Shown piece after piece: positions 32,301 to 49,587 of a stretch of DNA of 64,000 nt. The position numbers and the translations under genes were made by a program. The notes beneath the pieces were generated by a model, which was not told the origin of the DNA, searched no databases, and was given only the letters and a program-made list of their open reading frames with translations. The stretch lies in assembly GCA_963422365.1 (NCBI GenBank), contig OY729426.1:1504001-1568000 (forward strand), written 5' to 3'. How positions within the stretch are numbered: position 1 is the first letter of the stretch; every line of letters starts with the position of its first letter. Source of the DNA: Nitrospirales bacterium. GTDB taxonomy: Bacteria; Nitrospirota; Nitrospiria; Nitrospirales; UBA8639.

Positions 32301-33506
32301 ATGGCGAAGGCGAAATTTAATCGGAAGAAGCCGCATGTCAACGTGGGGACGATCGGGCATGTGGATCATGGGAAGACGACGTTAACCTCGGCGCTGACGA
32401 AGGTGATGGGGCAGGAGGGGAAGGCGACGTTTGTCAGCTATGACGAGGTAGCGAAGGCGAGTGAGTCACAGGGGCGGCGGGATCCGACGAAGATTTTGAC
32501 GATTGCGATTTCGCATGTGGAGTATGAGACGGACCAGCGGCATTACGCGCATGTGGACTGTCCGGGGCATGCGGATTACGTGAAGAACATGATTACGGGG
32601 GCGGCGCAGATGGACGGGGCGATTCTGGTGGTCTCGGCGGCGGATGGGCCAATGCCGCAGACGCGGGAGCATATTCTGTTAGCGCGGCAGGTAGGGGTGC
32701 CCTACATGGTGGTGTTTTTGAACAAAGCGGACAAAGTCGAGGATCCGGAATTGTTGGAGTTAGTGGAATTAGAGGTTCGGGAGTTGTTAGCGAAGTACCA
32801 ATTTCCGGGGGACGAGATTCCGATTATTGTGGGATCGGCGACGAAGGCGCTGGAGGGGGATGGCAGTGCCGTGGGGGTGCCGTCGATCAAGAAGTTGCTG
32901 GAGGAGGTGGATGCCTACGTTCCGACGCCGGCGCGGGCGATTGACAAACCGTTTTTGATGCCGATTGAGGATGTGTTCACGATCAGTGGGCGGGGGACGG
33001 TGGTGACAGGGCGCGTGGAACGGGGGCAAGTGAAAGTGGGCGATGAGATCGAGATTGTGGGGTTAGGGGAGACGCGGAGCACGGTGGTGACGGGCGTAGA
33101 GATGTTCCGGAAGGTGTTGGATGAAGGGCAGGCGGGGGATAATATTGGGGCGTTGTTGCGCGGGACGAAGAAGGATGACGTAGAGCGGGGGATGGTGTTG
33201 GCGAAACCGAAGAGCATGACGCCGCATACGCGGTTCAAGGCGGAAGTGTATGTATTGACGAAGGAAGAAGGAGGGCGGCATACGCCGTTTTTCAATGGGT
33301 ATCGGCCACAGTTTTATTTTCGGACGACGGATGTGACCGGGGTGGTGCAGTTGGTGGAAGGCGTGGAGATGGTGATGCCGGGGGACAATACGACGTTTAC
33401 GGGGGAATTGATTGCGCCGATTGCGATGGAGCAAGGGGTCCGGTTTGCCGTACGAGAAGGAGGGCGAACGGTGGGAGCCGGCGTCGTCACCGACATTCTC
33501 GCCTGA
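32301..33506 (+). CDS. tuf: Elongation factor Tu (copy 1)
   Basis: [28 protein letters not shown]. Confidence 0.98.
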
Positions 33507-35154: not shown

Positions 35155-35847
35155 GTGGGAAAGCAATTACAGGGCGCGGCAGCAAAAGTTGAGTCTAAAC
35201 TGTACGGTCTCCAGGAGGCGAGTGAATTCGTGAAGCAGGCGGCCTATGCCAAATTTGACGAGACCGTGGAATTAGCCATTCGGTTAGGCGTTGATCCGAA
35301 ACGCGCAGACCAAATGGTGCGTGGCACGACGGTTTTACCTCATGGCACGGGGAAAAAGGTCAGGATTTTGGTGTTTGCCAAAGGGGAAAAAGAGCAAGAA
35401 GCCAGGCAGGCTGGTGCCGATTTTGTGGGTGTTGATGATTTGTTGGAAAAAATTAAAGGGGGATGGTTGGATTTTGATCAAGCCATTTCCACTCCTGACC
35501 TGATGGCTTCTGTCGGAAAATTGGGAAAAGTGTTGGGGCCACGTGGTCTGATGCCCAACCCCAAGACAGGAACCGTGACATTTGAAGTGGGGAAGGCGAT
35601 CGAGGAAATCCGGAAAGGTCGGGTCGAGTACAAAGTGGATAAGGCCGGGAGCGTCCATGTGCCGATCGGCAAAGTTTCGTTTGCCGTATCGCAAATCACC
35701 GAAAATGCGCAGGCGGTTTTTACGTCGGTGGTGAAGGCAAAGCCCTCCTCAAGTAAGGGGAAGTATCTTAAGGGTGCGACCATGTCGAGCACCATGGGGC
35801 CGGGTGTTCCCTTGGAATGTACGACCCTGGCTCGCCAATTTGATTAG
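35155..35847 (+). CDS. rplA: 50S ribosomal protein L1
   Basis: [27 protein letters not shown]. Confidence 0.97.
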
Positions 35848-35871
35848 TCGCGGTGTAAAAAGGAGCCGGGC

Positions 35872-36804
35872 ATGAAAAAGGAACAGAAGGCAGGGGTGGT
35901 TTCCGATTTGCACGAGAAGTTTGTTAAGGCCAGGTTGGCCGTGGTGACGGAATGTGGAGGGATGCCGGTTAATCAAGTGACTCAGTTGCGACGTCAACTT
36001 CGTGGATCTCAGGCAGAGTTGAAAGTGGTGAAGAATTCCTTGGCTGCGAGGGCTGCGGTGGGGACCTCGTTATTGCCCGTCGTGTCGTTGCTGAAGGGGC
36101 AAGTCGCGGTGGTCATCGGCTACGATGATCCGATTTTGCCTGCCAAAATTCTTCGGGATTTTATTAAGCGAGAAAAATGCGATGGGAAAATTCTTTGGCG
36201 GGGTGGTGTCATAGAAGGAAAAGCTCTTGAGCCTGCACAACTGCTCGTGACAGCGGATTTGCCTTCCAAAGAGGTTTTGCTATCAACGCTGGTGTCTGCT
36301 ATGCAAGGGCCTCTTCGAGGAATGGTGGGAGTGCTTCAAGGGATTTTACGAGGATTTGCTGCCGTGCTGGTTGCGATTCAAGACAAAAAGAAAGGAGAAG
36401 GAGAAATGGCTGCAACGGAGGCAAAGCTTTCCAAAGATGACATTCTGGGGGCCGTTGAAAGCATGACGGTTTTAGAGTTGTCTGAACTGGTCAAGGGATT
36501 TGAAGAAAAATTCGGCGTGACGGCAGCGGCGCCGGTCGTGGTAGCTGCACCGGCTGCAGGGGATGGTGCGGCTCAGGCTGCCGAAGAAAAAGACTCCTTT
36601 GATGTGGTGTTAGCCAGTGCCCCGGCTGACAAGAAAATTCAAGTCATTAAAGTGGTGCGCGAGATCACCGGGCTTGGGTTGAAAGAAGCCAAAGATTTAG
36701 TGGAAGGGGCACCCAAACCGGTCAAAGAAGGTGCGGCAAAAGATGAGGCGGAAACGCTTAAGAAGAAACTCACGGATGTAGGGGCTACAGTCGAAGTCAA
36801 GTAG
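35872..36804 (+). CDS. rplJ: 50S ribosomal protein L10 fused in frame to L7/L12
   Basis: L10 (LRRQLR..VVKN, LPSKE helix) continues without a stop codon into complete L12. Confidence 0.85.
36406..36804 (+). CDS. rplL: 50S ribosomal protein L7/L12 (internal in-frame start)
   Basis: AAGGAGAAGGAGAAATG RBS and start; [37 protein letters not shown]. Confidence 0.9.
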
Positions 36805-48280: not shown

Positions 48281-48381
48281 CGTTGCAGCTTTTTGGAAAG
48301 GCAAGAATGCGACATGACTTTACTCGTTTCTTTCTCGTATAGCCTCAAGCGATTCTCAATCGAAGAGTGAGGAGGGGGCAG

Positions 48382-49587
48382 ATGGCGAAGGCGAAATTTA
48401 ATCGGAAGAAGCCGCATGTCAACGTGGGGACGATCGGGCATGTGGATCATGGGAAGACGACGTTAACCTCGGCGCTGACGAAGGTGATGGGGCAGGAGGG
48501 GAAGGCGACGTTTGTCAGCTATGACGAGGTAGCGAAGGCGAGTGAGTCACAGGGGCGGCGGGATCCGACGAAGATTTTGACGATTGCGATTTCGCATGTG
48601 GAGTATGAGACGGACCAGCGGCATTACGCGCATGTGGACTGTCCGGGGCATGCGGATTACGTGAAGAACATGATTACGGGGGCGGCGCAGATGGACGGGG
48701 CGATTCTGGTGGTCTCGGCGGCGGATGGGCCAATGCCGCAGACGCGGGAGCATATTCTGTTAGCGCGGCAGGTAGGGGTGCCCTACATGGTGGTGTTTTT
48801 GAACAAAGCGGACAAAGTCGAGGATCCGGAATTGTTGGAGTTAGTGGAATTAGAGGTTCGGGAGTTGTTAGCGAAGTACCAATTTCCGGGGGACGAGATT
48901 CCGATTATTGTGGGATCGGCGACGAAGGCGCTGGAGGGGGATGGCAGTGCCGTGGGGGTGCCGTCGATCAAGAAGTTGCTGGAGGAGGTGGATGCCTACG
49001 TTCCGACGCCGGCGCGGGCGATTGACAAACCGTTTTTGATGCCGATTGAGGATGTGTTCACGATCAGTGGGCGGGGGACGGTGGTGACAGGGCGCGTGGA
49101 ACGGGGGCAAGTGAAAGTGGGCGATGAGATCGAGATTGTGGGGTTAGGGGAGACGCGGAGCACGGTGGTGACGGGCGTAGAGATGTTCCGGAAGGTGTTG
49201 GATGAAGGGCAGGCGGGGGATAATATTGGGGCGTTGTTGCGCGGGACGAAGAAGGATGACGTAGAGCGGGGGATGGTGTTGGCGAAACCGAAGAGCATGA
49301 CGCCGCATACGCGGTTCAAGGCGGAAGTGTATGTATTGACGAAGGAAGAAGGAGGGCGGCATACGCCGTTTTTCAATGGGTATCGGCCACAGTTTTATTT
49401 TCGGACGACGGATGTGACCGGGGTGGTGCAGTTGGTGGAAGGCGTGGAGATGGTGATGCCGGGGGACAATACGACGTTTACGGGGGAATTGATTGCGCCG
49501 ATTGCGATGGAGCAAGGGGTCCGGTTTGCCGTACGAGAAGGAGGGCGAACGGTGGGAGCCGGCGTCGTCACCGACATTCTCGCCTGA
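48382..49587 (+). CDS. tuf: Elongation factor Tu (copy 2)
   Basis: Same protein as 32301-33506. Confidence 0.98.

Follow-up and report, generated by a model that had tools for sequence, protein, structure and literature searches.

The window analysed here is a 64,000-nucleotide stretch of contig OY729426.1 from a Nitrospirales bacterium. Between rplA and rpoB it carries a single stop-free rplJ-rplL frame (35872-36804, + strand) that encodes 310 amino acids in the order uL10, linker, bL12. The bacterial ribosomal stalk is viewed as a non-covalent uL10(bL12)4-8 assembly made from separate rplJ and rplL genes, a solved example being T. maritima L10-(L12 NTD)6 (PDB 1ZAV/1ZAW/1ZAX). The features of the locus are as follows.

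35155..35847, + strand: rplA (uL1), the upstream neighbour; its stop lies 24 nt from the rplJ start
35860..35865, + strand: Shine-Dalgarno (SD)-like AAGGAG for the fusion start, 6 nt 5' of the ATG at 35872; duplex with the 16S 3' end -8.1 kcal/mol
35872..36804, + strand: fused rplJ-rplL ORF (translation, Pfam, contigs of three studies)
35872..36399, + strand: uL10 part, residues 1-176 (PF00466; 1ZAV match E 1.4e-21; best Foldseek match 1zax_A)
36268..36399, + strand: long C-terminal uL10 helix, residues 133-176 (AlphaFold2 helix; gapless alignment to 1ZAV)
36392..36397, + strand: internal SD AAGGAG within codons K174-G175-E176, 8 nt 5' of the nested ATG; -9.0 kcal/mol
36400..36432, + strand: predicted flexible linker, residues 177-187, from the uL10 helix to the first bL12 helix (pLDDT <50 at 176-186)
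36406..36804, + strand: nested in-frame bL12 of 132 aa, a predicted free product starting at ATG 36406
36433..36573, + strand: bL12 dimerisation domain PF16320, residues 188-234 (Pfam, above cut-off)
36598..36801, + strand: bL12 C-terminal factor-binding domain PF00542, residues 243-310 (Pfam, above cut-off)

The junction reads AAG AAA GGA GAA GGA GAA ATG, where the ATG at 36406-36408 is Met179, and Met179 to the stop amounts to 132 aa. Pfam places the L10 family (PF00466) at residues 1-98 with an E value of 7.8e-26, and a scan of the entire fusion returned bacterial L10 and L12 families only, with no P1/P2-homologous C-terminal tail. Residues 130-174 of the uL10 part align without a gap to the C-terminal helix of T. 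maritima L10 (1ZAV), up to the end of that protein, and AlphaFold2 models a uL10 domain, one helix spanning 133-176, a disordered linker at 176-186 and bL12 helices from 188 onward. The gapless alignment and the modelled helix bear out the three-segment, Thermotoga-type helix length proposed in the first-pass annotation; the model is weak over the bL12 half (mean pLDDT 68, pTM 0.47) and does not give the placement of the tethered domain. The same layout is predicted for an Armatimonadota fusion (P0125), with a helix at 129-171 and a disordered linker at 174-182. Across the order the junction varies little in length: in 91 of 102 sequences the stretch from position 169 to 186 holds 18 residues, and in the others 19-20.

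One objection to a fused frame is that a sequencing or assembly error erased a stop codon. Contigs from three studies in Logan cross the junction with 0 differences (X3 at depth 263, X5 at depth 17, and X6 as a piece covering 36206-36642 at depth 19), a check made on assembled contigs, not raw reads, and one in which the present assembly may itself derive from X3 or X5. Given an identical junction in contigs of three studies and a frame that is open in 85 of the 86 genomes drawn from the order, error is refuted for practical purposes. The claim that no stop separates L10 from L12 is accordingly confirmed by the translation, the contigs and the relatives alike. The closed single-contig genome contains one uL10 match and one bL12 match, both within the fused ORF, and no second copy of rplJ or rplL was found in it.

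A search of relatives recovered the fusion in 31 of 31 genomes of the order, 30 of them with a full-length, stop-free frame; in genome G022 it is split over two contig ends, and both pieces are open across the junction. We then considered a draw of 301 genomes from the phylum, 86 inside the order and 215 outside, with rows counted by hand. Within the order 83 genomes carry a full-length stop-free fusion, two carry partial fusions that are open across the junction, and one has no match; identity across the 85 fused genomes is about 55-95%. A match was obtained in 197 of the 215 genomes outside the order, and none of the matches listed for these 197 is a stop-free full-length fusion. All 47 long matches listed outside the order contain stops, and most of the remaining genomes have separate matches; the 291 weaker matches are not expected to hide fusions, because a fusion would rank above them. 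At nine outside loci that carry both genes, direct reading of the DNA found the genes separate in all nine. The fusion is therefore fixed in Nitrospirales and absent from the 197 matched Nitrospirota genomes outside the order, and the rplJ/rplL junctions of relatives within the order proved to be fused and not stop-bearing.

In a quick tree of 88 rows, the fused Nitrospirales fall into a single clade (SH-aLRT 99) that is nested in a group with unfused Nitrospiria (SH-aLRT 98). In the closest unfused sister, L032, AGAAAGGAG precedes a bL12 that starts MATATKLSKDEL. Comparison of these sequences indicates that the fusion likely originated at the base of Nitrospirales when the rplJ stop disappeared together with most of the spacer, and we infer that the former intergenic SD was turned into the coding codons K-G-E. 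The spacer upstream of the fused gene is also short. Its 24 nt here (35848-35871) equal the median of 62 Nitrospirales loci (L001-L094; range 10-113), while the corresponding spacer is 178-289 nt in eight of nine unfused Nitrospirota (L031-L038, L049) and 20 nt in the sister L032. Since so short a spacer leaves no room for the usual rplJ leader, autoregulation of rplJ must differ, and shortening of the spacer with loss of the leader seems to be older than the fusion. A causal tie between the short rplA-rplJ spacer and the fusion was considered and rejected, given the 20 nt of the unfused L032 and the 125-178 nt of a second fused lineage described below. A search of 13 loci against Rfam at E<=1 returned no family, the L10 leader included, but this was equally so for the unfused outgroups with long spacers, and leader loss is not thereby shown. 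A scan for promoters and terminators gave results at chance level. EF-Tu-sized ORFs at 32301-33506 and 48367-49587, the second of which begins like EF-Tu, flank the rplK-rpoC and str clusters and are probably the usual tuf duplication.

The first-pass annotation had proposed that the in-frame ATG at 36406 is a nested start for bL12, and comparison across the order supports this. The inner start codon is ATG in 62 of 62 unique full-length Nitrospirales CDS, and all 120 proteins compared keep Met179, unlike Met31, Met144 and Met151, which vary. The inner SD forms a duplex with a median of -9.0 kcal/mol in the 62 CDS. Folding of the mRNA in the -30..+20 window of the inner start is weaker than the ORF median in all 62 and weaker than at the rplJ start in 51. 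After 40 further loci were added, ATG was found behind AAGG[AG] in 100 of 102 CDS, in an alignment whose anchor itself required the AAGG[AG] motif, and the other two have Met behind K-E-E-G-D. Codon -5 is AAA in 95 of 100 and codon -4 is GGA or GGG in 96 of 100, counts taken among kin that are not independent.

Codon choice was compared in 23 Nitrospirales representatives below 85% identity. Gly175 is GGA in 18 and GGG in 2 of 20, whereas other conserved Gly residues are GGA in 40 of 247; with GGA and GGG combined, the figures are 20/20 and 113/247. Similarly, Lys174 is AAA in 20 of 23, as against 142 of 429 at other Lys. One family (f3) keeps the SD in a different register, as AAG GAG GAG/GAT. 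The further suggestion that the linker holds a tandem SD stands in part. The AAGGAG at 36392-36397 is conserved and usably spaced, but the second copy at 36398-36403 lies 2 nt from the ATG, which is too near, and its Gly codon is variable (GGA 52, GGG 32, GGC 6, others).

Because the ATG is conserved, the AAA-GGA codons are constrained and the mRNA folds weakly, the nested start looks to be under selection at the DNA level, and we regard internal initiation at this codon as very probable on these comparative grounds. Several observations are less favorable. The inner SD outscores all other in-frame ATG, GTG and TTG codons in only 5 of 62 CDS, with a median of 8% scoring equal or better, and Met198 is nearly as invariant as Met179 (100/102). 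Separate bL12 genes are reported, in the available part of PMC13001810, to be more codon-adapted than uL10. In the fusion the bL12 part is not higher (0.033 +/- 0.026 versus 0.086 +/- 0.023 for the uL10 part), a comparison of low power given that codon bias is weak genome-wide (EF-Tu 0.004).

Fusions of this kind extend beyond the phylum. Many further full-length uL10-bL12 chains, at 35-45% identity, turned up in a search of all 50% representatives. Together with a follow-up profile search this gave 143 proteins in 25 clusters at 52% identity, namely the query cluster and 24 others, leaving out partial proteins and P0153, a long-spacer read-through. Eight of the 24 have at least two members and 16 are single, and the singles may include sequencing errors. 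Names, looked up for 30 clusters, point to Armatimonadota (NLC55322.1), Bipolaricaulia (MFQ5793823.1), Dehalococcoidia/Chloroflexota (GIW11759.1, MCL6648797.1), Fervidibacterota (MCS3918850.1) and Gemmatimonadetes/Gemmatimonadota. By eye, most clusters have G/E-rich residues directly before the Met or Val that begins bL12. Several individual proteins depart from the common form: P0136, from a cluster of 16, has a long junction, with 83 residues from helix start to bL12 motif compared with 62-76 in other fusions, and P0122, P0123, P0128, P0137 and P0147 are 593-1056 aa long and match the bL12 C-terminal domain 6-8 times over. P0411, known as a protein sequence only, is a Nitrospira-type fusion in which Val replaces Met179, which is what a change of start codon from ATG to GTG would give. 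Two Clostridia loci (L096, L098) taken as candidate fusions were rejected, as both have a TAA.

DNA was examined for one fused lineage outside Nitrospirales (L131-L147). The fusion is present in 17 of 80 loci, which give 16 unique sequences with a median identity of 64% (range 54-100%). In these 16 CDS bL12 starts with GTG 15 times and with TTG once, other conserved Val residues being GTG in 47 of 153, and the Gly before the bL12 start is GGA in 16 of 16 against a background of 45 of 183. In the unfused relatives of this lineage free bL12 starts with the same GTG. Retention of GTG or TTG points to an initiation codon and not to a required residue, as far as codon patterns can tell. Codon invariance is not unique to the start, since Val204 of the bL12 'MTVLEL' motif is GTT in all 16 CDS of this lineage (codons there are mixed in Nitrospirales and unfused loci). 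A single clade uniting this lineage with Nitrospirales was rejected (AU p=1.5e-11) under a constraint that involved 28 of the 88 rows and was picked after the first tree was seen. Mapping of fused and unfused states on the 88-row tree requires 10 changes, three of them forced by starred branches. For the loci in the tree, two separate origins are shown; the unfused sisters of other fused groups lie outside the tree sample.

We sought to determine whether the open frame is itself maintained. No stop codon occurs in the linker of any of the 102 unique CDS of the order, and parsimony counts 71 amino-acid changes at linker codons -9..-1. At the rate of four-fold sites, about 33 stop gains would be expected at codons -5..-1 and 16 at -3..-1, a rough figure obtained from 57 columns with an over-parameterisation warning and ignoring the RBS constraint on the same bases. 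Unrelated bacteria (L156-L161) tolerate a stop between the SD and the start; the rplJ stop falls there in the unfused loci L156, L158-L161 and L174. Selection for the open frame is likely on these counts, though not proven. The fusion could alternatively be a tolerated accident, in which a single loss of the stop left a harmless extra bL12 at the C-terminus and no selection acts on the tether itself. Many unfused operons have short, often in-frame spacers that one substitution or small deletion would fuse, an ease that could by itself account for the repeated origins, and the 62-83 codons from helix to bL12 in the fusions are within the 56-99 of unfused loci. Set against this are 0 reversions in 85 genomes of the order where roughly 16-33 stop gains are expected, and we consider an accident quite improbable.

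The reading that we favor, by a narrow balance of judgment and from comparative sequence, is that a stop-free frame has retained the ancestral ribosome-binding site and start of bL12, yielding a 310-aa chain and several-fold more free 132-aa bL12, with the intact fusion anchoring the stalk. One mRNA would give both products, in a ratio governed by how strong one start is relative to the other. The tethered bL12 would pair with a free bL12 at the distal end of the uL10 helix, so that one fusion and five free bL12 would make a stalk of six arms, one of them unable to dissociate. Inner-start translation, tether survival, the position of the tethered arm and the stoichiometry are the steps that we infer; we think it fairly likely that the tether stays intact. 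Free bL12 must be made from somewhere, because E. coli with only one L12 dimer doubles in 46 min instead of 24 (PMC3299993, available part) and the genome has no other rplL; the same slow growth makes a stalk of the fusion alone, with one L12 monomer, implausible. The inner start is the simplest source. T. maritima L10, to which the helix aligns, binds six L12 N-terminal domains (same part of PMC3299993). The two products posited by the first-pass annotation, of 310 and 132 aa, thus appear likely from the single gene copies, the conserved start and SD, and the GTG/TTG codons of the second lineage.

Other arrangements of the same products have to be weighed. Both starts might be used and the fusion then cleaved in the linker, leaving an ordinary uL10(bL12)6 stalk and an open frame that serves only expression or co-translational assembly. 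The linker is predicted to be disordered and is basic/acidic, and the SD alone accounts for its conserved residues; on the other hand, the fused lineages have no common cleavage motif at their junctions, and a stop codon, a cheaper route to the same outcome, is present in 0 of 102 CDS. We view cleavage as unlikely, though worth keeping in mind. Unlikely as well is an intact fusion in which free dimers fill all three helix sites and the tethered bL12 is an extra arm, alone or as part of a fourth dimer, for seven or eight factor-binding domains in the form closest to archaeal P0. Such an arm would fit the full three-site length retained by the helix, the seven binding sites of the archaeal stalk, of which aP0 carries one (PMC7768734, available part), and the slower growth that accompanies higher L12 copy number (PMC12179292, available part), but a complete tethered dimerisation domain sits ~11 residues from the distal site, and binding in cis should outcompete free dimers there. 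If instead only the long product were translated, free bL12 would be surplus fusion that had been cleaved, with the uL10 halves degraded. Codon adaptation that is no higher in the bL12 half would agree with this, but the SD, start codon and weak folding are all conserved, and the GTG/TTG retained by the second lineage is understandable only as an initiation codon, leaving very little room for such a scheme. Our preferred reading remains the intact fusion with a supply of free bL12 from the inner start.

The fused ORF has been recorded before in database names: 'Fused 50S ribosomal proteins L10 and L7/L12 (Modular protein)' is the GenBank/UniRef name in Nitrospira moscoviensis (ALA57626.1), N. 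japonica and Nitrospira sp. KM1, and the Fervidibacter sacchari fusion is annotated 'Multifunctional fusion protein'. These names record the fused ORF only and are silent on a nested start, a second product, order-wide fixation or repeated origins. Searches by title and abstract opening, mostly among papers outside subscription journals, found no publication on the fusion or the nested start. The term 'fused' does not occur in the available parts of PMC13001810, PMC10931766 and PMC12179292, and the first 300,000 characters of PMC7203096 hold nothing relevant. By the sequence comparisons above, the fusion is real, order-wide and repeatedly evolved; within the literature covered it is known only as an annotation. 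Gene callers give the fusion alone or bL12 alone, and rplJ or rplL can consequently seem missing.

That several lineages independently evolved a P0-like stalk, with a non-exchangeable covalent bL12 arm under selection and one ORF giving both subunits at a fixed non-equimolar ratio, strikes us as marginally the better bet. If so, the rule of a wholly non-covalent, exchangeable bacterial stalk has repeated natural exceptions, all Nitrospira included, and the locus would be a rare instance in which a single ORF provides two subunits of a core machine, at about 1:5. A fixed fusion in globally important nitrifiers and in other phyla offers natural test cases for why bL12 is multi-copy, whether bL12 exchange matters and how a non-equimolar uL10:bL12 ratio is set. 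Direct tests are feasible, as cultured carriers exist (N. moscoviensis, N. japonica and F. sacchari).

Compared with known systems, the fusion shares with the bacterial L7/L12 stalk its domains, its gene order (rplK-rplA-rplJ-rplL-rpoB) and the helix length of 1ZAV. The ordinary stalk is made of two polypeptides, whereas here no stop intervenes, the gene specifies one bL12 in covalent linkage with uL10, and bL12 has its start within the frame. As in the heptameric Thermotoga-type stalk, the helix is long enough for three dimers by its alignment to 1ZAV. E. coli infB, clpB, mrcB, arcB and the rpn family have SD-led in-frame internal starts that give full-length and N-terminally shorter products (bioRxiv 10.1101/520783, available part), and the fusion shares with the infB/clpB type a conserved in-frame start codon and usable SD spacing. 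In contrast to those genes, the two predicted products would belong to one complex, as subunits in a ratio of about 1:5 with the inner product major, and the inner start once served a gene of its own. In archaea, aP0 is an rRNA-anchored chain with its own factor-binding C-terminus; P0 has a tail with homology to P1, and bL12 has little in common with the P proteins (PMC7768734, available part). The convergence with P0 claimed by the first-pass annotation would therefore be a functional analogy only and not homology. Archaeal aP0(aP1)6 and eukaryotic P0(P1-P2)2 have an anchor with a P1-like factor-binding tail, whereas here the whole of bL12, dimerisation domain included, is attached to the anchor.
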